Shown here piece by piece: positions 10,906 to 54,431 of a stretch of DNA of 64,000 nt (positions are counted from its first letter, which is position 1; each line of letters starts with the position of its first letter). Origin of the DNA: Gammaproteobacteria bacterium (GTDB lineage Bacteria > Pseudomonadota > Gammaproteobacteria > Steroidobacterales > Rariloculaceae). The position numbers and the translations under genes are program-made. Under the pieces are notes generated by a model. The model made no database searches and was not told where the DNA came from. It was given only the letters and a program-made list of their open reading frames with translations. Location of the stretch: NCBI GenBank assembly GCA_050485545.1, contig JBJHBP010000004.1, positions 256 to 64,255 of the forward strand, read 5' to 3'.

Positions 10906-11436
10906 TCAAGGGCGTATCTCGATTGGTGTCCCCTCGCGGGTCATCAGCCAGATATCGATCATGTCCGAGTTGGACACGGCTATACAGCCATCGGTCCAGT
11001 CCCAGCCCTGATAGCGGCTTTCTTCGTAGCGGGGTATGTTCGGCGTACCGTGAATCATGATCGCGCCGCCCGGATCCACGCCCAGGGAGCGGGCATGGGC
11101 CCGATCCCGCTCGTTCGGATAGGAAACCAGTATGGACAGAAAGTAAGCGCTGTCGGTGTTGCGCGCGGTGAGCTGGTAGCGTCCTTCCGGCGTCCGATAG
11201 TCGCCTGATCGCTCCTTGTGCCCTTCCGGCATCAACCCCAGAGAGATCGGAAACGTGCGCAGCGCCTCGCCATTCTTCATCAGGTGGAGGACGCGGTTCG
11301 ATTTGTCCACCAGTACCAGATCGGCAGTCTGAATGTGGGAAGCCAGAGCCGGCTGAGCAGCAGCCGGCGCGACCGGAAGACACAGCCATGCACCCAGCAG
11401 AAGGGCGACCCGGACCCGCGTCATCGCCATCGACAT
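10906..11436 (-). CDS. L,D-transpeptidase (YkuD) family protein
   Basis: Signal peptide, VLVDKS, GDYRTPEG, catalytic IMIHG...WTDGCIAV. Confidence 0.9.
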   Translation of the reverse strand: MSMAMTRVRVALLLGAWLCLPVAPAAAQPALASHIQTADLVLVDKSNRVLHLMKNGEALRTFPISLGLMPEGHKERSGDYRTPEGRYQLTARNTDSAYFLSILVSYPNERDRAHARSLGVDPGGAIMIHGTPNIPRYEESRYQGWDWTDGCIAVSNSDMIDIWLMTREGTPIEIRP

Positions 11437-11480
11437 CGGCGCGGCATTGGCCCGGTAATCGCTGACATCACCAACTTCGC

Positions 11481-12365
11481 TCAACCCTGCTTCCGCAATG
11501 CGGCAATGCGCTCCTCAATTGGCGGATGCGACATGAACAGGCGTTTGAATCCTGCCATGTGGCCGGAATTGATGCCGAATGCCTGCATGGACTCAGGCAG
11601 ATCGCTGGGCTGATGAATCCGGCGCAGCTTGTCGAGCGCACTGATCATGTTCTCGCGTCCAGCCAGCTTCGCGCCACCGGCATCGGCACGGTATTCACGC
11701 AACCTCGAGAACCACATCACGATGGTACTGGCGAGAATGCCGAGCACGATCTGCGCAACGATGCTGACAATGAAGAAGCCCGGGCCAACGCCACGTTCGT
11801 TGCGGAACACCAGCCGATCGACAAGAAAGCCGATGACGCGGGAGAGAAACACGACAAACGTGTTCACCACGCCCTGAATGAGGGCCAGCGTAACCATATC
11901 CCCATTGGCGACATGGCTGACTTCATGGGCCAGGACCGCCTCGACCTCACGCTCGTTCATCCGACTGAGGAGGCCGGTGCTGACCGCCACCAGTGCCTTG
12001 TTGCGATTCCAGCCGGTGGCGAATGCGTTCACATCCTGTGAATCGTAAACAGCCACCTCCGGGCAGCCTATGCCCGCAGCCTGCGCCTGTCGCTGAACCG
12101 TATTGAGCAACCAGCTCTCGGTGGCATTGCGCGGTGTGTCGATGACGCGGGCACCGGTCATGCGTTTGGCCGACCACTTCGAGATGGCCAGCGAGATGAA
12201 CGAACCGGCAAAGCCGATGACCGCGGAGAAGATCAGCAGCGCCCGAAGGTCCAGATTCGTTCCGGTGTCGTCCAGAATCGACTGTATGCCCAACAGACGC
12301 ATGACGACCGCAAGCACCAGCAGTACTGCAATGTTCGTGGCAAGAAAGAGCGCAATCCGCTTCAT
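11481..12365 (-). CDS. htpX: Membrane zinc protease HtpX
   Basis: [40 protein letters not shown]. Confidence 0.97.
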
Positions 12366-12428: not shown

Positions 12429-12550
12429 CGCTTGCGGTTCCAGCTCCAGCCTCGGCGAAGGTGGCAGCAGCCGTCGCCGGCGCCTTCGGCACTGGTAGAA
12501 TCCGCGTCCAGTCTGGCCCTCGGGCCGCCCCCGGGTATCGGCTCCGCTCA

Positions 12551-13483
12551 ATGACGCCATCCGACGAACTGTCACTGTCCAGATTCCGTGCGCCGCGCTA
12601 CTGGCCGGCGTGGCTGCTCTGGCTGCTGATGCGCTCGGTAGTACTGCTGCCGTTCCGATGGCAGATTCGCATCGGCAAGGCGCTCGGACGCCTTGCCGGT
12701 CGATTCAATACCCGTGAACGTCGCAATGCGTTGCGCAATCTGGAAGTCTGTTTCCCGGAGCTGTCCGTCGAACAGCGCCAGACGCTGCTCCGGCAACACT
12801 TCGAGGCCATTGGCGCATCCTTTGTGGAAATGGGGCTGGGCTGGTTTGCACCCATAGAGAGGCTGCGCCGGCTGGTTGTAATCAATGGCCGCGAGCACAT
12901 GGAGAAAGTTGTCCGCGACGGTCGCGGCGCGATTATCTTTACCGCCCATTTCACCACGATAGAAACCTGCTGCGCGCTGTTCCAGGATCTGATCCCGGGC
13001 TGCGTATTCATGTACCGGCCGCAGGACAACGCGTTCGTCGACACCATGATCCGACGCGGACGCAGTCGCTTCGCCGGCGAGCAGATCCCCCGCGACAACG
13101 TGCGTGCGCTGCTGCGAGCCCTGAAGAACCGCAAGATCATCGCCTATGTGCCCGACCAGAGTTACGTTGGCAATCAGGGCGTTCTGCTGCCGTTCTTCGG
13201 TGAACCGGCGATATCGAACGTAGCGACCAGCAAGTTTGCGCGGCTGTCCGGCGCGCCGGTGCTGACATACTTCTTTCGCCGCCTGCCCGACGATTCGGGC
13301 TACGTCATTGACATCAGTCCGCCGCTGCAAGGGTTCCCTGCAGACGACCCGGTGGAGGACACGCGCCGGTTGAACCAGCTGCTCGAGGACTACATCCGAC
13401 GGGCGCCTGATCAGTATCTGTGGACCTACCGCAAGTTCAAGGGCCGGCCACCACCCTATCCGGACCTGTATCGAAGTCGCTGA
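12551..13483 (+). CDS. lpxL: Lipid A late acyltransferase (LpxL/HtrB family)
   Basis: APRYWPAW, RNLEVCFPEL, HFTTIE (HX4E), PDQSY, APDQYLWTYRKFK. Confidence 0.9.
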   Translation: MTPSDELSLSRFRAPRYWPAWLLWLLMRSVVLLPFRWQIRIGKALGRLAGRFNTRERRNALRNLEVCFPELSVEQRQTLLRQHFEAIGASFVEMGLGWFAPIERLRRLVVINGREHMEKVVRDGRGAIIFTAHFTTIETCCALFQDLIPGCVFMYRPQDNAFVDTMIRRGRSRFAGEQIPRDNVRALLRALKNRKIIAYVPDQSYVGNQGVLLPFFGEPAISNVATSKFARLSGAPVLTYFFRRLPDDSGYVIDISPPLQGFPADDPVEDTRRLNQLLEDYIRRAPDQYLWTYRKFKGRPPPYPDLYRSR

Positions 13484-45719: not shown

Positions 45720-46133
45720 CTATCAACTCCGCAGCCGCGCGACCCCGACACAGCCGGGCATCACGCGCAAGAATGCTTCTGATGGCACAGTGGCCACCGC
45801 TTTTGTTCACGAACCAGGTTTTCCCGTCCCGGCGGACGCGCCGCAACGGGTCTGACCATTCGCGACCCGGCATGCCGTTTTCCGGATCCGTGGCGATTCG
45901 ATCACGCACAACACGATTAGTGCCCGGAAATGCAGTCCCTCGCACCCTGGGGCCGCGCTGCCGCCCGACGCTGCGCCGTGCCGCGCCGCGCCAGTCATCG
46001 TGAGACGGCTGACAGGCGTTGCCGAGTTTGTGACCTCGCGCGGTGAACTGCAACCAGTGTCGGTGCCGTGCGCCGCCGCACCTGCGCTATCGGCGCACAC
46101 ATCAGGCCCCGCTTCTGCGATCATTGCGCCGCA

Positions 46134-49100
46134 ATGGATACGCATGGCTGGCAGTTCTGGATCGATCGCGGCGGCACTTTTACCGACATCGTTGCACGGT
46201 CACCGGCGGGTACGCTGAGCACGCTGAAGCTGCTGTCCGACAACCCGGAGCAGTACCACGATGCCGCTTCCGAGGGTATTCGCCGCATGCTCGCGGCCCA
46301 GCCTCGCCACATGCGCCGCATCGAAGCGGTGAAAATGGGCACAACGGTGGCCACCAATGCGCTGCTGGAGCGCAAGGGTGAACCCACGGTGCTGATCACG
46401 ACCGCGGGCCTGCGCGATGTGCTGCGCATCGGCACCCAGAATCGCCCCGACATCTTTGCGCTCGACATCCGTCTGCCGCGGATGCTCTACACCGACGTGG
46501 TGGAAGCCGACGAAAGAATCGCCGCCAACGGCGAGGTCGTCACGACACTGGACGAATCCGGGCTGCACGGAAAGCTGACGGACATCTACGCCGACGGTAT
46601 TCGCAGCGTGGCGATCGCCTTTCTGCACGGATATCGCTTTCCCGACCACGAACGGCGTGCACTGGTCATCGCCAGCAGCATCGGCTTCGAACAGATTTCG
46701 GTGTCTCACCAGGTGAGCCCCCTGATGAAGCTCGTGCCACGCGGCCATACAACACTCGTCGACGCGTACCTGTCTCCGGTGCTGGACCGCTACATCCGGC
46801 GCCTGCGCGAAGGCCTTGCCGACATACTCGGCGACGCATCGCTGCTGTTCATGCAAAGTCATGGCGGACTGGTGCAGGCCGATGCGTTTCGCGGCAAGGA
46901 CAGTCTGCTGTCGGGCCCGGCGGCCGGCGTCGTCGGTATGGCCGCTGTCGCCGCGAGCGCTGGATTCAACGACGTGATCGGTTTTGACATGGGCGGCACA
47001 TCGACGGACGTGGCGCTTTATCAGGGCCGGTTCGAGCGCAGCAGCGAATCGCTGATCGCCGGCGTTCGCATCAGTGCGCCGATGATGCGCATCCATACCG
47101 TGGCGGCCGGTGGCGGTTCGATTCTGAAGTTCGAGTCCGGGCGCCTTCAGGTGGGACCTGAGTCGGCCGGTGCCAGCCCGGGGCCGGCGTGCTACCGCAA
47201 CGGCGGCCCGCTTACCGTGACCGACGCGAACCTGCTCCTGGGTCGCCTGCAGGCAGACCGATTTCCGTGCGTGTTCGGGCCGGACGCCACTTCGCCGCTG
47301 GATGTCGGTGTAGCCAGGTCGGCATTCGACAGCCTGGCGGCGGACGTGGCGACATCCGGTGAACCGGTGTTCACACCACGGCTGGCAGCCGGCTTCCTGC
47401 GCATCGCGGTCGAGAAAATGGCCAACGCGATCAAGACGATTTCGATACAGCGAGGGCACGACGTCACGGCATTCGCGCTGGTCTGCTTCGGCGGCGCCGG
47501 CGGCCAGCACGCCTGCCAGGTCGCCGACGCCCTCGGCATCCGCTCGATTCTGATCCATCCGCTGGCCGGCCTCCTGTCGGCCTATGGCATGGGGATCGCC
47601 GACCTTCGCTGTCTGCGCCAGTCGGCGGTGGAAGCGCCACTTACGCATGAGTGGCTGCAGGGTTGCGGGCAGCGCTTCGCCACACTGGAACAGCAGGCCC
47701 GACTTGAACTGAGCGGCCACGAGGCAATTGCCACGGACGTCAGCTGTGCGCGACGCCTGCGACTGAAGGCCGGCGACTCCGATACCGCTCTGGCGGTGGA
47801 ATGGACGCAGAGCACCACCCTCATCGAAATGCGCGACGCGTTCGCTGCCGCGCATCGATTGCATTTCGGATTCGCCGCGGCCGACGTGTCTCTGATCGTC
47901 GAATCCATCGAGCTGGAGGCCGTGGCCGCCATCGACAAGCCGGAGGAGCTGAGGCAGACGTGCGTCGCGCACACGCCAGACCCCGCGGATCACAGAGAGA
48001 TCTGGTTCGAGGATGCATGGCGGCGTACGCCGGTATTTGAACGCGAATGCCTGTCACCCGGCGCCACGATTGTCGGCCCGGCACTGATCGTGGAGGCGAA
48101 TGCAACAACGGTGCTGGAGCCGGGGTGGCAGGCGGCCGTGAATGCGCCAGGACACCTGCTGTTGCAACGATCGCGGCCGGCGGCCGACCGTGAGCGGCTG
48201 GAAACCGACTGTGATCCGGTCATGCTGGAGGTGTTCAACAATCTGTTCATGCATATCGCCGAACAGATGGGTGCGGTTCTGGAAAACACCGCCTACTCGG
48301 TCAACATCAAGGAACGACTGGACTTCTCCTGCGCCCTATTCGATGCCGACGGGGAACTGATCGCCAACGCGCCACACGTACCGGTACACCTGGGCTCGAT
48401 GGGCGACAGTGTGCAGCATATCCTGCGGGCGAATGCGGGCGCGATGCGGCCGGGGGATGTCTACCTGATGAATGCGCCGTACAGCGGCGGCACCCATCTG
48501 CCGGATGTCACGGTGGTCACACCGGTTTTCGATGAGCAGGGAGGGAAACTCCGCTTCACGGTTGCGTGCCGCGCACATCACGCCGACATTGGCGGCATCA
48601 CGCCCGGCTCCATGCCGGCCGCAAGTTGCCACATCGAAGAAGAAGGGGTGCTGTTCGAAAACCTGCGCATCGTGCGCGATGAAGCACTGGCGGAGCGTGA
48701 CATTCGCGATCGGCTGGCAAGCAATCCTCACCCGGCGCGCAATCCCGACCAGAACATCGCCGACATCAAGGCACAGATCGCTGCCAATGCGCGCGGTGTC
48801 AGCGAACTTGAACGCATGGTCGGTCGATTCGGCCTGCCGGTCGTGCAGGCCTACATGAGCCACATCAAGGACAACGCCGAACAATGCGTGCGGCGTGCGA
48901 TCGGCAGGCTCCGGAACGGCAGCCATACCGTCACGATGGACGGTGGCGAGCGGATCTCGGTGAGCATTCGTACCCATCCGGAACGGGGAACGGCCATCAT
49001 CGACTTCACCGGAACCGGGCCGCAGTCATCCCGAAACTTCAACGCACCGGCATCGATTGCGCGCGCAGCCGTGCTGTATGTGTTTCGCACGCTGATCAGC

Positions 49101-49748
49101 GAGTCGATTCCGCTCAATGCAGGCTGCCTCAAGCCGCTGCAGATTGTGCTTCCCGACAACACTCTGGTGCACCCGGCATGGCCGGCTGCGGTCGTCGCCG
49201 GCAATGTGGAGACTTCGCAGTGCATCACTGACGCGCTGCTTGCGGCGCTTGGCGCCTGTGCCGCCTCGCAGGGCACGATGAACAATCTGACTTTCGGCGA
49301 TGCGCATCATCAGTACTACGAAACACTGTGCGGCGGAGCTGGTGCCGGCCCTGGATTCGACGGCGCCAGTGCGGTGCACACCCACATGACCAACTCGCGA
49401 CTGACGGACCCCGAAGTGCTGGAGTGGCGCTATCCGGTCAGGCTGACGAAGTTTGAAGTGCGCCACGGATCGGGCGGCAACGGCCGGTGGCGAGGTGGTG
49501 ATGGCGTGATTCGCGAAATCGGGTTTCTGCAGTCGATGCGTGCGGTCATCCTGTCGAATCGGCGCACGACAGCGCCTTTCGGGCTGCGCGGAGGGGAATC
49601 CGGTCAGTCGGGCAGCAATCTGCTGGTCAGGGTCGACGGCTCACGGCAGGAGCTGGGTGCGACGGCGGAGCTGCAACTGCAGGCTGGTGACCGTCTGCGC
49701 ATCAGCACACCAGGCGGTGGCGGCTACGGCGACGACCACGACGACTGA
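46134..49748 (+). CDS. Fused hydantoinase A/B family 5-oxoprolinase (ATP-hydrolysing)
   Basis: [63 protein letters not shown]. Confidence 0.95.
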
Positions 49749-49755
49749 GCCGGTG

Positions 49756-51309
49756 TCAGCCGACCAGCTCGCCCATCTCCAGGCCTGCCAGAGATCTGAT
49801 CGAACTGGAGCGCGCGCCATGCACGATCTCGTACACCATGAATTCGCCCGGCTTGTCGAGCGCAAAACCGACCTGGAGAACCGGCACCGCGCCACGGTCG
49901 ACGGCTGCCAGGGCACGCACCGAGAACGCCTGTTCCGGACGCGCTCCGACCAGCGCGCCCTGCTCGAACAGCGCCGACAGCAACGTCGCGACCTGACGTT
50001 CCATTTTTGAACCCAGGTCGGCATCGTTCACGGCACCGCCCGTCCATCGCGTGCTGCGCTCAATCGTGTTGAGGATGAACAATGCCACGCGACGTCGATC
50101 CAGACGCTGCCAGAGCCGGCCGATCAGCCTTGGACCAGCCAGCGTGACATTGCCGGTCAGCACGCAGCTGCCCCCGGCCACCGTGCGCAAAGCGTTGACA
50201 CCGAACCTTCGCAGCAGCACCGCCTCGCGCTCGGACAGCGTACTGGCCGGGACCAGTCCGTTGGAGACGCGCATACACTGATCGAGCGGCCCCCACCATC
50301 CGCGACGGGCCGCGTTGGCCAGCATGCCCGCCAGCGCGCCACCGGCCGGCACACCGGCGACAAAGCGAGGGTCGCGGTCACGACGCTGGGCATGCGGAAA
50401 ATAGGTCATCGCGTTGTGACTGCTCAGAGCACCGGCGCGCATCGCACCAAGTACGTCAGCTGCCGACTTCCAGCTCCAGGGCGGATCCCATATCAGCAGC
50501 GCCTTGCGGCGCTCGCAGTAGCGTTCGGCCGCCATGAACGTGGTGTCACCCAGATCGCGATTCGGCGGCAATGGAACGCAGAGAAAGTCGACCTGCTCGA
50601 CGCGGTCCAGTGCAAACAGGCCTGTGCCCGCTGTGTTGCAGCCAATGAAGTCGTAATCCGTGAGTTCTTCGCCGTCATGACCGGGCGCCGACAGCGTGAT
50701 ATAGGGTATCGGCAACCCTGGATGGGCGGGCCGCGTTGCATCGGGTCTCTGCACCGGCAGCGGTCCGGCCAGCCTGACCAGCTCGGAGTCCTGCAATGCG
50801 TCGACGATGTAGCGTGGATCCTCCGGATCCAGCGATATGCCCGAATACAGTTCCTGGTCCTCGACCAGCTCCGAGCCGGGCCGACCGACGCGCTGCACCA
50901 CCAGATTGAATCGTCGTGGATCGGACTCTACCCGATCGTAGTCGACCGACACTCTCAGGAACTCGCGGCTGCCTGGCTGCCTGGCCTGCAGCTGCAGCGT
51001 TTCGGGACCGGCAGGTATGTCGATGCGTGCCTTCAGCGCCCGATTGGCAACACGAACCACGAGCGCAGCATGCCCGCCGTGCGCAAAGTACTGTTCGACG
51101 GCCTGCGACACGAAGCTGAAGTCGACGTGACCGCCGAAGGTGCGACGAAACTGTTCGAAACTGGTGACGGCGACCGGCTCGTTCAACGGCCCGCGCTCGG
51201 TGCGACCAAGGAATGCTGTGACAGCCGGCGCAAGCAGAGGCAGGGTAGCGTTGCCTGCGATGCGCTTATCAGCCGCCACCATCGGAAAGTCAAATGGTTT
51301 GACCGACAT
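49756..51309 (-). CDS. Contractile phage tail sheath family protein (orphan, diverged)
   Basis: TAFLGRTERGPLNEPVAVTSFEQFRRTFGG, AVEQYFAHGG..VVRV, TGLFALD, YCERRKALLIWDPP, GVNALR, RRVALFI, GALVG.RPEQAFSVR and VGFALDKPGEF follow the sheath motif order. Confidence 0.88.
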   Translation of the reverse strand: MSVKPFDFPMVAADKRIAGNATLPLLAPAVTAFLGRTERGPLNEPVAVTSFEQFRRTFGGHVDFSFVSQAVEQYFAHGGHAALVVRVANRALKARIDIPAGPETLQLQARQPGSREFLRVSVDYDRVESDPRRFNLVVQRVGRPGSELVEDQELYSGISLDPEDPRYIVDALQDSELVRLAGPLPVQRPDATRPAHPGLPIPYITLSAPGHDGEELTDYDFIGCNTAGTGLFALDRVEQVDFLCVPLPPNRDLGDTTFMAAERYCERRKALLIWDPPWSWKSAADVLGAMRAGALSSHNAMTYFPHAQRRDRDPRFVAGVPAGGALAGMLANAARRGWWGPLDQCMRVSNGLVPASTLSEREAVLLRRFGVNALRTVAGGSCVLTGNVTLAGPRLIGRLWQRLDRRRVALFILNTIERSTRWTGGAVNDADLGSKMERQVATLLSALFEQGALVGARPEQAFSVRALAAVDRGAVPVLQVGFALDKPGEFMVYEIVHGARSSSIRSLAGLEMGELVG

Positions 51310-51439
51310 TACCTGAGTATCGAGGAAAAACGCATGATAGCCGCACGTGGCGGCGCTTGCACGTATTGTAACGACTGGCGATCAGATGGGAGATTCGATT
51401 GCCTGATTCGCCGTCCGCCAGTCGATCGCATGTTCCGGA

Positions 51440-51724
51440 CTATGTCGTTCGTGTTTTGCGTTTTGTTGCCGGCCGGGCGGACGGATCACGGTGCCTCGGC
51501 TGCCGTCCGCGTGCATCACCTGCCTGGGGGGACGCTACCGACTGACGCTTGCCCGGCACCGGCACATCGCCTTCTGCCCGACCTTCGGCAACATCCTGTT
51601 CGTGCTCATCGCGCTTGCGCTGCAGTTCCTCGAGCATGACCTTCATCCACTCGCTCATCAGACGTTCCTGATCGACGGTCTCATCCGCGGATTTCTTGCC
51701 GGTCTTGTGATCGCTGGCTGTCAT
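51440..51724 (-). CDS. Small hypothetical protein (alternative start 51658, MSEWMKVMLEELQRKR)
   Basis: Fills the gap between sohB and the sheath gene on the same strand; charged helical core. Confidence 0.55.
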   Translation of the reverse strand: MTASDHKTGKKSADETVDQERLMSEWMKVMLEELQRKRDEHEQDVAEGRAEGDVPVPGKRQSVASPQAGDARGRQPRHRDPSARPATKRKTRTT

Positions 51725-51790
51725 GATCTGCTTGTGTCCAGAGGCAACTTCGGGGAATGGGCGCAGGCCGCCCGGGGCCGGCAGTATAGC

Positions 51791-52759
51791 TCAGCGTGCG
51801 AGCAGGCTCTCCACGCCGCCGTAGAGTTTCTCCGTCCACGGACGACGGCGCTGGAACCGCACCAGAAACACATCGTGTTCGCCAACCGCATCGAGGAGAA
51901 AGTCGTCGCTGGTACGAATCTCGTCAATCAGCTTCTTTTCGATCGCCAGCGTGCCGTACCAATGCTCGCCCGTAGAAACCTGTTCGATATCCACCTGTGG
52001 TCGATACTCCTGGATCTGCCGCTGAAACAGCGCGTGCACGTCTTCAAGCTCCTCGCGCAGCTTGCGGCGTGCCTCTTCGGTATTCCTGCCGAACATGGTC
52101 AGTGTGCGTTTGTGCTGACCGGCCGTGACCTGCTCGAAATCGACACCCTTGGCTTCCAGCAGGCGGTGGAAATTCGGCAACTGCGCAAGCACACCGATGG
52201 AGCCGACAATCGCGAACGGAGCCGCCATAAGATGATTGGCCACACAGGCCATCAGGTAGCCGCCGCTGGCCGCGACCTTGTCTACGGCAACGATCAGATG
52301 CAGACCGCGCTGCCGGATCCGCAGCAGCTGCGACGCGGCAAAACCGTGTTCGTGGACCGTGCCGCCCGCATTCTCCAGCCGCAGCAGCACCTGATCGTCC
52401 TGCTCGGCCACCGCAAGCACCGCCGTCACCTCTTCGCGCAACGAAGCGGCGGCCGTGGCGCGCAGGTCACCCCGGAAATCGAGCACGAAGATGCGCGGCC
52501 GGCGCTGTACACCCGAGGCCTTGCGCTGCCTGCGCCGCAATCGACGTTCGGCACGTCGGCCGGCCTTGCCGGCCATGGCCCGACGCATCGCATGCGCGGA
52601 TTCATCAAGGGCGCGGTTGAGGTGCTTGACCGTGAGACCTTCCGCATGGCTACTGCGGCGCGCGGTGGAGACGATGACAGTGAACGTCACCATAATGACG
52701 ACGGCGATGGTGAGCAGCTGGACCAGAAACAGTCCGTAGTCGGCCAGAAATTCAGCCAC
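51791..52759 (-). CDS. sohB: Protease SohB (S49 family)
   Basis: EFLADYGLFL, VLDFRGD, LREEVTAVL, VDKVAASGGYLMAC, GSIGVLAQLPNFHRLL. Confidence 0.95.
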   Translation of the reverse strand: MAEFLADYGLFLVQLLTIAVVIMVTFTVIVSTARRSSHAEGLTVKHLNRALDESAHAMRRAMAGKAGRRAERRLRRRQRKASGVQRRPRIFVLDFRGDLRATAAASLREEVTAVLAVAEQDDQVLLRLENAGGTVHEHGFAASQLLRIRQRGLHLIVAVDKVAASGGYLMACVANHLMAAPFAIVGSIGVLAQLPNFHRLLEAKGVDFEQVTAGQHKRTLTMFGRNTEEARRKLREELEDVHALFQRQIQEYRPQVDIEQVSTGEHWYGTLAIEKKLIDEIRTSDDFLLDAVGEHDVFLVRFQRRRPWTEKLYGGVESLLAR

Positions 52760-52765
52760 GGGTGA

Positions 52766-53758
52766 TCACAGCCCGACGTTGTTCTTTTCGAACACGCGAT
52801 CGGCACGGTAGCTGGACCGTACCAGCGGACCGGACACCACTTCCATGAAGCCGCGTTCCAGTCCCCACTCGCGGTAACGCTCAAACTCATCGGGCGTCAC
52901 GTAGCGTTCCACCGCCAGATGATTGGCCGTCGGGCGCAGGTATTGACCGAAGGTGACAATGTCCACGTGGGCGGCACGCAGATCGTCCAGCGAACGGGCA
53001 ATCTCGTCGTCCGTCTCACCCAGGCCGAGCATCAGGCTGGTCTTGGTCAGCACCGATGGCCGATACGCCTTGGCGTGCCCGAGCACCGCCAGTGTCTGAC
53101 CGTAGCCGGCGCGTGCATCACGAACCACATGCGTCAGTCGCTCCACGGTTTCCAGATTCTGCGCGAACACTTCCAGACCAGAGTCGACTACCGTCTCGAT
53201 GTCGGCCCTGCGGCCACGAAAATCCGGCGTCAGTGCCTCGACCGCGGTTTCCGGGCAACGCCGCTTGATGGCGCGCACACAGGCCGCGTAATGCCCGGCG
53301 CCGCCATCAGGAAGATCATCGCGATCCACCGAAGTCACCACCACGTAGCGAAGCCCCATCAAGGCAACCGATTCGGCGGCATTCTGCGGTTCCTCGGGAT
53401 CCAGCCAGCCCCCGGGGTTGCCGGTGTCCACGGCGCAGAACTGACAGGCACGCGTGCATACGGCACCCATCACCATGATGGTGGCGGTACCGTTACTCCA
53501 GCACTCGCCAATATTCGGACACATGGATTCCTCGCAGACCGTTGCGAGCCTATGCGTGCGTACCGTGTCTTTCACGGCCTGGTATTTCGCGCCTGATGGC
53601 AGACGCACCCGCAGCCACGGCGGTTTGCCGTCGCCGGGCTGCTGCACGCGATCCTCGCGATGCTTGACGCCGTTCCTGATCGCCGTGAAGCCCTGCTCGG
53701 TGCGATACTTGGCACCCGTGGCAACGACACGGATTCCGCGAAACTCACTCACTGGCAT
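52766..53758 (-). CDS. lipA: Lipoyl synthase
   Basis: [39 protein letters not shown]. Confidence 0.98.
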
Positions 53759-53912
53759 CGGCTCACTGACATTTACGCAGGCTCACTGGAATATTGCTCT
53801 CTGATACATCAACGACCGGCAGTCGCTCTCCCGACGCAGCTCCGCGGCACAGGGTCGGCACCCTGCAGGCACCAGGGCCGGTGATTATCTCATGGTTTCG
53901 GAACCATCGGTC

Positions 53913-54431
53913 ATGAGCCGCTATCGCCCGCCATCCCCGCCGACCTCCCGGTACATCACGCCGGAGGGTGCCGCCGCGCTCAGGTCGGAGCTGGACCATC
54001 TGTGGCGGGTACGGCGACCGGAAGTCACGGCGGCGCTGGCCGCGGCGGCCGCCGAGGGCGACCGATCCGAGAATGCGGAATACATCTATCGCAAGAAGGA
54101 ACTGCGCGAGATCGACCGGCGCATTCGGCACCTGACGCGACGCCTCGATGGCATTCGCGTGGTCGACCGCCTGCCGGACGACATGGACAGGGTATTCTTC
54201 GGCGCCTGGTTCGATCTGGTCGACGACGACGGCCGGACGCTCACGCTGCGTCTGGTCGGTCCGGACGAGACCTCCATGGGCAAGGGCTATATCAGCGTCG
54301 ACTCGCCGCTGGGTCGCGCCGTTCGCGGACGATCGGTCGGCGACACGCTGCCGGTACCAACGCCTGAGGGGACCAGAACCTACCAGCTCACGGGATTGCG
54401 CTACGTTGCACCGGGGACAGGTGACGGGTGA
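53913..54431 (+). CDS. greB: Transcription elongation factor GreB
   Basis: YITPEG, AAEGDRSENAEYIYRKKELREIDRR, VFFGAW, ISVDSPLGRA. Confidence 0.95.
   Translation: MSRYRPPSPPTSRYITPEGAAALRSELDHLWRVRRPEVTAALAAAAAEGDRSENAEYIYRKKELREIDRRIRHLTRRLDGIRVVDRLPDDMDRVFFGAWFDLVDDDGRTLTLRLVGPDETSMGKGYISVDSPLGRAVRGRSVGDTLPVPTPEGTRTYQLTGLRYVAPGTGDG

Follow-up and report, generated by a model that had tools for sequence, protein, structure and literature searches.

The stretch of DNA considered here, which we call the window (64,000 nucleotides of contig JBJHBP010000004.1, from a gammaproteobacterial genome), carries at positions 49756 to 51309, on the reverse strand, a gene for a homologue of the contractile tail sheath that stands alone among housekeeping genes. 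On balance, the explanation that we favour is that its product is an exapted sheath protomer, which would act without a tube in some role of the cell itself; that the gene was domesticated without a tube we hold to be very probable. An earlier note on this DNA, made by a model from the letters of the window and a list of its open reading frames (ORFs), had offered domestication, conjecturally as a tube-less polymer or scaffold, as one of two readings, the other being a detached accessory subunit of an extracellular contractile injection system (eCIS) encoded elsewhere. Domestication is upheld by a position conserved across the bacterial order, by purifying selection (ratio of non-synonymous to synonymous substitutions, dN/dS, of 0.07-0.17), by a single clade and by the lack of a contractile machine in well-assembled carriers. 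The gene and the parts of it used below are the following:

49756..51309, reverse strand: sheath-homologue gene (protein P0001), 517 amino acids, ATG start, uninterrupted ORF; PDB phmmer, PHROG_23, AF2, Foldseek and VIA
51220..51309, reverse strand: N-terminal arm region, residues 1-30; alignments, conservation, dN/dS and pLDDT
50680..51069, reverse strand: beta-rich third domain, residues 81-210 (approximate); secondary structure, structural alignment lengths and conservation profile
49810..50112, reverse strand: C-terminal domain (Phage_sheath_1C equivalent), residues 400-500; Pfam stretch 399-475, conservation and dN/dS

A sheath by fold and by descent

By fold and by descent P0001 belongs to the contractile sheath superfamily, and it is closest to the sheaths of contractile injection systems (CIS), eCIS included. 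A phmmer search of the PDB at E<=1 brought up sheath proteins and nothing else, in 13 distinct sequences. The best match was the CIS sheath of Halogeometricum borinquense (9ezm_A, E 4.3e-27), followed by two CIS sheaths of Streptomyces coelicolor (8bky_A, E 1.6e-23 over residues 11-496; 8bl4, E 4.8e-23) and then by the Anabaena, AlgoCIS, Afp and PVC sheaths. The 'tail sheath' profile PHROG_23 covers residues 22-457 (E 7.2e-22). The homology to sheaths, of which motifs had been read in the translated ORF, extends over the full length. What Pfam was expected to say came out in part only: Phage_sheath_1C (PF17482) is seen over the stretch 399-475, at E 1.5e-3 and 19 bits, below its gathering cut-off of 26.9 bits, and Phage_sheath_1 (PF04984) does not match at E<=0.01. 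The tube-linked relatives, by contrast, pass the Pfam sheath cut-offs. No NCBIfam family matches the protein, and a search of the ESM Atlas returned sheath-like clusters without names only.

A structural model (AF2), built on a 51-row alignment, has a mean predicted local distance difference test score (pLDDT) of 87.1 and a predicted template modelling score (pTM) of 0.86, only residues 1-17 and 510-517 falling below 50. Foldseek, a check that the earlier note had proposed, placed sheaths at the top: all the top matches listed are sheaths, with 9ezm_A at E 4.3e-29 (template modelling scores, TM, 0.68/0.72). VIA-align gave Z scores of 34.2, 32.4, 31.3 and 30.5 to CIS, phage, archaeal and pyocin sheaths, the first for 9gts_2A (root-mean-square deviation 2.4 A, 320 residues, 27% identity), the third for 9ezm_A (432 residues aligned, the third domain included) and the last for pyocin R2. 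The aligned length is 300-330 residues with the short two-domain sheaths and 400-434 with the three-domain ones, so that P0001 comprises two core domains and a beta-rich third (~81-210). This third domain is absent from the short pyocin, PVC and Afp sheaths and present in those of T4 (gp18), P1, KP1, Lin1278 and H. borinquense.

Other approaches added little to this picture. Neither a catalytic motif nor an enzyme family was detected in the protein with Pfam and NCBIfam; a signal peptide or membrane segment was not seen by eye, no predictor having been applied. A search for fusions among proteins of 906-2585 amino acids gave one weak match (E 1.7e-24, 29% identity) and no informative fusion. 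Predicted as a complex, the full-length protein and its residues 35-517 scored 0.00 in two runs, made without controls, a result that speaks neither for nor against an association.

A gene without its machine

In the window genome (G000), a draft in 53 contigs that is 77.8% complete, we found no second sheath copy, gp19-type tube (PF06841), gp25, Baseplate_J, Phage_GPD, Hcp, TssC or P2-type tube. Because this draft is incomplete, the weight rests on its relatives. A genome of the same genus (G177, 98% complete) carries the sheath gene without Baseplate_J, Phage_GPD, Hcp, gp25, gp19 tube, P2-type tube or TssC; a genome of the same family (G008, 99% complete, two contigs) carries it without the same seven machine families; and gp25 was not found in the near-complete G136. 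The genome-wide search for gp19, gp25, Baseplate_J and VgrG suggested beforehand came back empty in G000, G177 and G008 alike.

The order was sampled through 201 genomes, many of them drafts, one of which (G016) is unpublished and enters the tallies only. The PF06841 tube is found in 19/201 of them, as is TssC (PF05943, 19/201). When the 131 genomes with a strong sheath match are cross-tabulated, by hand from the match tables, 13 have the tube and 13 have TssC; at least one of the two is present in 22, and 109 lack both. In no carrier does the tube match lie near the sheath gene: it is on another contig or at least 77 kb away. Two families in which every genome has the sheath (21/21 and 20/20) show the tube in 1/21 and 2/20 and TssC in 0/21 and 0/20. 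In six genomes (G124, G066, G047, G052, G030 and G009) the tube adjoins a second sheath, which matches P0001 only at E 1e-12 to 1e-28; the PF06841 search does pick up tubes that are present. Since these tubes are found beside a weakly related sheath, the order does possess genuine eCIS loci, with a sheath of a different kind. A complete eCIS holding a close relative of P0001, which would have removed the domestication reading, was not encountered.

Distribution and descent

A sheath gene match at E<=1e-10 occurs in 133/201 genomes of the order (109/158 among those of high quality) and a strong one, at E<=3e-53, in 131/201, the exceptions among the 133 being G009 and G181. The gene is nearly always single copy in its carriers, and whole families have it (21/21, 21/21, 20/20, 19/20, 8/8, 7/7 and 7/7). 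A protein database holds more than 1,100 homologues, of which the best 120 are all 493-556 amino acids long and 50-89% identical. Searched with a profile, 1.84 billion representatives yielded 19,185 matches at E<=1e-3, along a continuum of scores in which the solitary clade is not delimited. Outside the order, 8/397 genomes of the class match at E<=1e-30, with 30-37% identity. There the sheath gene is directly followed by a gp19-type tube (PF06841, E 1e-45 to 1e-48) in 7/8 loci, and the gene after the tube is T4_baseplate-like in all three loci scanned at that point; in the eighth locus a second sheath paralogue lies downstream and the locus ends before a possible tube.

A maximum-likelihood tree was made with 51 members (the window protein, 30 proteins from loci with checked context and 20 P-numbered proteins from the database) and 16 other sheaths. 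All 51 members form one clade (ultrafast bootstrap/Shimodaira-Hasegawa-like approximate likelihood ratio test, SH-aLRT, 100/100; present in 200/200 bootstrap trees), sister to the tube-linked sheaths. Every family with at least two rows in the tree is monophyletic (7/7, read by hand from the tree). Identity of the sheath to the window copy tracks that of lipA (Spearman 0.94, n=18) and of sohB (0.84, n=17), figures that describe a pattern rather than test it, because kin are not independent.

Two more sheath genes lack a recognisable tube neighbour, L073:5188-6708 (G077:C3) and L072:4605-6323 (G026:C8). The neighbours of the former encode an AraC regulator, an acyltransferase, a Zn-dehydrogenase and an S58 peptidase. 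In the tree the two group with tube-linked sheaths, outside the solitary clade, and L073 keeps a canonical PGVYIRE arm. Sheaths may have been orphaned more than once, if the sequences of these two loci are a guide.

A fixed place in a string of housekeeping genes

The sheath gene sits tail to tail with a 5-oxoprolinase gene, 7 bases separating the two stops (49749-49755), and downstream of sohB and lipA on its own strand. The surroundings are as follows, the neighbour genes having been called with a crude gene caller:

46068..49748, forward strand: 5-oxoprolinase, 1226 amino acids; Pfam; convergent neighbour and syntenic anchor
51440..51724, reverse strand: small conserved ORF, 94 amino acids from the first ATG; single copy in the genome; no Pfam family
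51791..52759, reverse strand: sohB; Peptidase_S49_N and S49 (Pfam); upstream anchor, same strand
52766..53758, reverse strand: lipA; Radical_SAM and LIAS_N (Pfam); upstream anchor, same strand

The oxoprolinase matches Hydantoinase_B, A, A_N and A_C in Pfam (E 4e-202, for Hydantoinase_B, to 8e-8). A Pfam scan of 49/54 window ORFs, delimited with a crude ORF caller, brought up no phage or CIS family: 36 of the 49 belong to housekeeping families and 13 have no family at E<=1e-4. Of the remaining five, four went through a separate Pfam scan and one, a shadow ORF over sohB, was dropped. GC content stays between 0.60 and 0.69 in each 500-base bin of the region 44-57 kb, and between 0.64 and 0.67 over the sheath gene, so there is no compositional break at this gene. 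On these points the earlier note had read the window well: the 517-codon frame is intact and begins with ATG, the identity and spacing of the convergent oxoprolinase and of sohB and lipA agree with the Pfam matches and coordinates, and the housekeeping setting, free of phage genes and even in composition, is as described. One point needs amending: the 480-bp spacer that separates sohB from the sheath gene is not empty, for it holds the small conserved ORF listed above.

The same arrangement recurs far beyond the window. The two nearest relatives (89% and 74% identity) show the identical order lipA-sohB-sheath followed by the convergent oxoprolinase. In 20 long loci taken from other genomes, lipA occurs in 16/20 and sohB in 15/20, on the same side and strand, and the oxoprolinase is adjacent in 10/20; it adjoins the sheath gene in most short loci too. 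This synteny holds down to 33% identity and across families, so that the comparison of neighbourhoods that had been called for did yield syntenic orthologues across the order. In most genomes the gap between sohB and the sheath gene amounts to 2-8 kb. The 23 gap ORFs scanned comprise YkuD L,D-transpeptidase (10), M48 (5), rhomboid (4), M23 (2) and PALP (2), with an LpxL-like acyltransferase, an EamA transporter and a methyltransferase found once each in single gap ORFs, and no phage parts. A recurrent order, all on one strand, is sohB > M48 > YkuD > (small ORF) > rhomboid > sheath.

Selection and a changed pattern of constraint

Selection was gauged by dN/dS after Nei and Gojobori (NG86). In the ten pairs with dS<1, from five families, dN/dS of the sheath gene is 0.070-0.170; seven more saturated pairs (dS>=1) give 0.068-0.35. 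The value near 1 that would have spoken for decay was nowhere seen among the unsaturated pairs. Between the window and its nearest relative the figure is 0.108 for the sheath, 0.126 for the oxoprolinase and 0.070 for both sohB and lipA. By segment, the medians over eight pairs are 0.24 for residues 1-30 and 0.03-0.10 for every other segment, the C-terminal domain standing at 0.10. This within-lineage value shows that the need for the C-terminal domain persists. Apart from a single copy, discussed below, the strong matches listed have intact reading frames.

What is constrained has nevertheless changed with respect to sheaths that work on a tube. Conservation was compared between 31 members with checked context and 10 sister sequences, mostly tube-linked (L073, one of the 10, has no tube). 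Mean column conservation is 0.55 in the solitary clade and 0.71 in the sister group, and the two profiles are roughly inverted:

First 40 residues / residues 1-20: sister group 0.81-0.83, most conserved; solitary clade 0.40, weakest
Residues 321-500 / 341-500: sister group 0.72-0.89, most conserved; solitary clade 0.41-0.54, weakest
Residues 81-220: sister group 0.51-0.61, weakest; solitary clade, no figure
Residues 41-280: sister group, no figure; solitary clade 0.60-0.74, strongest

For the C-terminal domain the contrast is 0.43-0.54 against 0.82-0.89 in tube-linked sheaths. The latter are near-invariant at the start, 'YPGVY[IV]EE', and at the end, 'KPAEFVV.K.QQ.AGQ'. Where they have YPGVY[IV]EE, P0001 starts with MSVKPFDFPMVAAD, and it ends with ...KPGEFMVYEIVHGARSSSIRSLAGLEMGELVG; the C-terminus has ~20 extra residues. 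A degenerate 'G-I-x-V-x-E' arm is kept in 17/21 solitary-clade rows outside the window's sub-clade, the N-terminus of which reads 'M-[AS]-x-[EK]-P-x-D-[FL]'. Invariant residues specific to the clade (R119, R140, Q152, Y219, D220 and F75) lie in or beside the third domain, which is the relatively best-conserved part in the solitary clade and has R119, R140 and Q152 inside it.

In the pyocin, T4 and type VI secretion system (T6SS) structures, the termini of the sheath protein make up the inner layer, providing the handshake between subunits and the contact with the tube, and inserted domains face outward. The PGVY[IV]EE strand and the KPAEFVV end are the inter-subunit handshake motifs of the pyocin and T6SS sheath literature. 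On that basis, and by analogy, the clade would have loosened the parts that serve the tube and the mesh, and tightened those that face the cytoplasm.

A sheath at work without a tube?

The favoured reading, an exapted protomer with a role in the cell, may be developed into a scenario. A sheath gene of eCIS or phage type would have been captured in a single event, near the root of this gammaproteobacterial order, and would have lost its tube, baseplate and spike partners; from then on it would have descended vertically, as one chromosomal copy with a job to do in the cell. The protein would stay in the cytoplasm and would no longer wrap a tube or fire. It might self-associate, by way of its inner domains, to give a static ring, tube or lattice, its conserved middle and outer face binding a partner of the host. 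The string sohB, M48, L,D-transpeptidase, rhomboid, sheath hints that this job could lie in envelope or protein-quality maintenance. The parts of the scenario are not equally credible. Self-assembly, argued by analogy with other sheaths, is the likeliest mode of action, without being what we would bet on, and the tie to envelope maintenance, suggested by gene order, is on the unlikely side. The full picture, that of a static, non-firing ring or tube forming a cytoskeleton-like scaffold, with its conserved outer face organising a process of the cell, possibly envelope maintenance, and encoded by what would be a core gene for hundreds of millions of years, must be deemed doubtful.

Several observations weigh against all or part of this. 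The window genome being only 77.8% complete, parts missing from it prove little by themselves. Across the order the search for a tube was made with PF06841 (PF04985 and Hcp were sought in five genomes each), and a very divergent tube would escape it. In the tree, genomic context was checked for the members other than the 20 database rows. The gene is also dispensable: families at 0/20, 0/20 and 0/5, as well as genus g8 (0/5), do without it. In g8, which belongs to the same family as the window genome, sohB is directly convergent with the oxoprolinase, ~160 bp apart, and the site stands empty:

L075:5076-5239 (G107) and L076:1425-1522 (G128): empty site in g8, convergent sohB/oxoprolinase

Judged from these sequences, the empty site is best read as a loss of the sheath gene. 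One copy, in G191 (L006:131-1681, C155), has two in-frame stops, TAG at about codon 96 and TAA at about codon 445; the gene aligns well in other respects and comes from a 200-contig draft, and the stops would mark a pseudogene or reflect an error of sequencing. The arm motif G-[ILV]-x-[ILVF]-x-[EQKT] is found in 0/30 rows of the window's sub-clade; with the handshake arm gone and dN/dS highest in the arm, the idea of a polymer is weakened for the window protein. The envelope link comes from synteny alone, and vertical kin can keep gene order without any functional tie; moreover, YkuD and M48 have been relocated in the window's genus. Finally, what is proposed here on function, assembly and localisation is drawn from sequence and from a model.

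Weighing the rival explanations

The changes at both ends of the protein invite the thought that it does not polymerise at all: the sheath fold would then persist as a soluble monomer or small oligomer, a binding or catalytic module with its function in the middle and third domains and its former assembly surfaces in decay. We find this somewhat doubtful. It would account for an arm motif lost in the window's sub-clade and for the arm as the least constrained segment, for a C-terminal domain and 'KPAEFVV..QQ' end that are poorly conserved between families, and for the clade-specific R119, R140, Q152, Y219 and D220 within residues 112-220. It sits badly with a C-terminal domain that remains constrained within lineages (median dN/dS 0.10) and is modelled confidently, with the arm still recognisable in most families outside the sub-clade, and with a search of Pfam and NCBIfam that detected neither a catalytic motif nor an enzyme family. 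Self-assembly, moreover, comes readily to the sheath proteins as a class (PMC6357053).

A structural homologue of phage origin that hosts keep without its partners, and that several lineages have lost, also brings to mind an anti-phage device, be it a decoy or poison subunit spoiling the assembly of myovirus tails or a sensor of phage tail proteins. Precedents exist of hosts turning phage-derived structural parts against phages. This is nonetheless quite improbable here. The gene belongs to a stable housekeeping string across the order, not to a variable island; it is single-copy, vertically inherited and under purifying selection like that of its neighbours, unlike typical defence genes; and the surfaces needed for co-assembly, the arm and the C-terminal domain, are precisely those that have diverged. 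PADLOC-DB 2.0 has no model matching at E<=0.01, a weak argument since this library covers systems described by 2023. Very improbable, too, is the alternative put forward in the earlier note, extended to T6SS, of an accessory or spare sheath subunit for a machine encoded elsewhere in the genome. Afp/PVC-type loci do use several sheath paralogues (PDB entry names), a minority of carriers have an eCIS (13/131) or a T6SS (13/131; union 22), and the window genome is incomplete; most carriers (109/131) have neither gp19-type tube nor TssC, the near-complete G177 and G008 are devoid of gp25, Baseplate_J, VgrG and Hcp, as G136 is of gp25, tubes are never nearby, and the true eCIS loci carry their own distant, tube-adjacent sheath. 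As for a prophage or eCIS relic in decay, useless to the cell, it would fit the isolation of the gene, the interrupted G191 copy and the lineages that lost it; given intact frames in the other strong matches listed, dN/dS of 0.07-0.17 in ten unsaturated pairs, a position conserved to 33% identity and native GC and neighbourhood, it is extremely improbable. The exapted, tube-less sheath thus remains the explanation that we retain.

Further features of the locus

In the window itself the envelope genes lie far from the sheath gene: YkuD (10909-11484, reverse strand), M48 (11484-12365, reverse strand) and a lipid A acyltransferase (12461-13480, forward strand) are found ~38 kb away. Since most other genomes of the order have a YkuD-M48 pair between sohB and the sheath gene, the pair was probably separated from the latter by a rearrangement in the window's genus, to judge from gene order. 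In one family a gamma-glutamyl cyclotransferase-like gene (GGACT/AIG2; L041:10529-11125) is inserted between the sheath gene and the oxoprolinase; it fits as its pair in a 5-oxoproline pathway, and nothing evident links it to the sheath.

The small ORF in the spacer, which is unannotated and might be a companion of the sheath gene, lies ~130 bp upstream of it on the same strand. A start at ATG 51658 seems more likely from its sequence, giving a protein of 72 amino acids, MSEWMKVMLEELQRKRDEHE..., with a charged, disordered tail. Its motif SEW[ML]x[VIL]M[LT]xE[VIL]xRK recurs in 48/201 genomes of the order. As an obligate partner of the sheath this ORF was rejected, those 48 genomes including 5/20 in a family without the sheath; the search is insensitive for so short a protein. 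The ORF usually overlaps the stop codon of the L,D-transpeptidase, so that what it follows from genome to genome is the gene string, not the sheath. In one family (6/6 loci), two adjacent proteins of ~211 and ~218 amino acids, of no known family, directly follow the sheath:

L042:7655-8956, L045, L047:7742-9132, L051, L052 and L057: pair of ~211 and ~218 amino acids; in the window genome at C3:86343-87617 (another contig)

These were likewise set aside as obligate partners. The first of them occurs in 104/201 genomes, including 5/5 and 5/5 of families with few or no sheaths, and it is missing in 6/7 genomes of a family that has the sheath in 7/7.

Immediately upstream of the sheath gene, the 70 bases before the start codon (51309-51380, reverse strand) are well conserved with respect to the nearest relative, and hold two CACGTG/ACGTG half-sites ~14 bases apart, with a weak AGG before the ATG. 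A consensus scan found no sigma-70-like promoter, terminator-like sites number 4 against 1.5 +/- 1.3 in shuffles, and Rfam gave no match at E<=0.1 over 49000-54000. Among public sequencing runs, the only one found to contain the stretch is a DNA run, marked as a possible source of the assembly; no RNA run was listed. The public annotation begins at Met10, for a product of 508 amino acids (cluster member P0123); the MSVKPFDF / MAxEPxDF N-terminus kept in relatives argues for the longer form of 517 residues, on the strength of the alignment. Public records attribute homologues to sources labelled Gammaproteobacteria, Rhodanobacteraceae and Woeseiaceae bacterium.

Known systems and significance

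The CIS sheath of S. coelicolor (8bky, 8bl4, 9gts, 9gtp) is the best structural match, a single chain of 534 amino acids; according to the titles of the PDB entries it is built up on a tube, starting from a baseplate, and contracts, whereas here the gene is solitary, without an adjacent tube, baseplate or spike, in most carriers without any, and the arm motif is not kept. The H. borinquense sheath (9ezm), best match both in sequence and by Foldseek, belongs to an archaeal contractile particle and was solved as a contracted sheath; it is 23-24% identical, with ~90 additional residues separating the two stretches that match. The Afp, PVC and AlgoCIS eCIS, together with the tube-linked sheaths of the same class, make up the sister group (~520 amino acids, 30-37% identity). 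In the same-class loci a tube and then a T4_baseplate-like gene follow, and YPGVY[IV]EE and KPAEFVV are near-invariant; the solitary clade has neither these neighbours nor the canonical motifs. The solitary gene thus fails the defining features of eCIS, phage tail, tailocin and T6SS, namely adjacent tube, baseplate and spike genes and the handshake motifs.

For the behaviour of a sheath without a tube, polysheaths offer a model. The sheath protein gp18 of T4 forms them alone. That of phage FV3, gp053, is reported to self-assemble into stable tubes without other tail proteins (PMC6357053). Polysheaths arise, to be sure, as side products of phage genes or as laboratory constructs made from them; they do not come from genes that cells conserve. 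To be taken over by the cell is another matter: to our knowledge, all known domestications of contractile tails (T6SS, R-pyocins, Afp/PVC/MAC, Streptomyces and cyanobacterial CIS) have kept the whole machine. The same holds of those listed in a review, where the T6SS sheath provides a precedent for cellular takeover of a phage sheath (PMC8987985). In T6SS, the sheath is split into TssB and TssC within a machine that is kept entire; here a one-chain sheath is the only survivor, TssC being found neither in the window genome nor in 118/131 carriers. Full-text searches, mostly of journals outside subscription, brought up no solitary, conserved or domesticated sheath gene.

Public records label such genes 'phage tail sheath protein FI' or 'hypothetical', labels that could mislead predictors of prophages or of eCIS. 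Experiments should be feasible, since some carriers are well assembled (a few in a single contig), provided that they come from cultured strains. If the reading that we favour is true, this would be the first single component of a contractile tail to have been put to a new purpose, one that roughly two thirds of the species sampled in the order carry, and it poses the question of what the role of a sheath may be when there is no tube for it to wrap.

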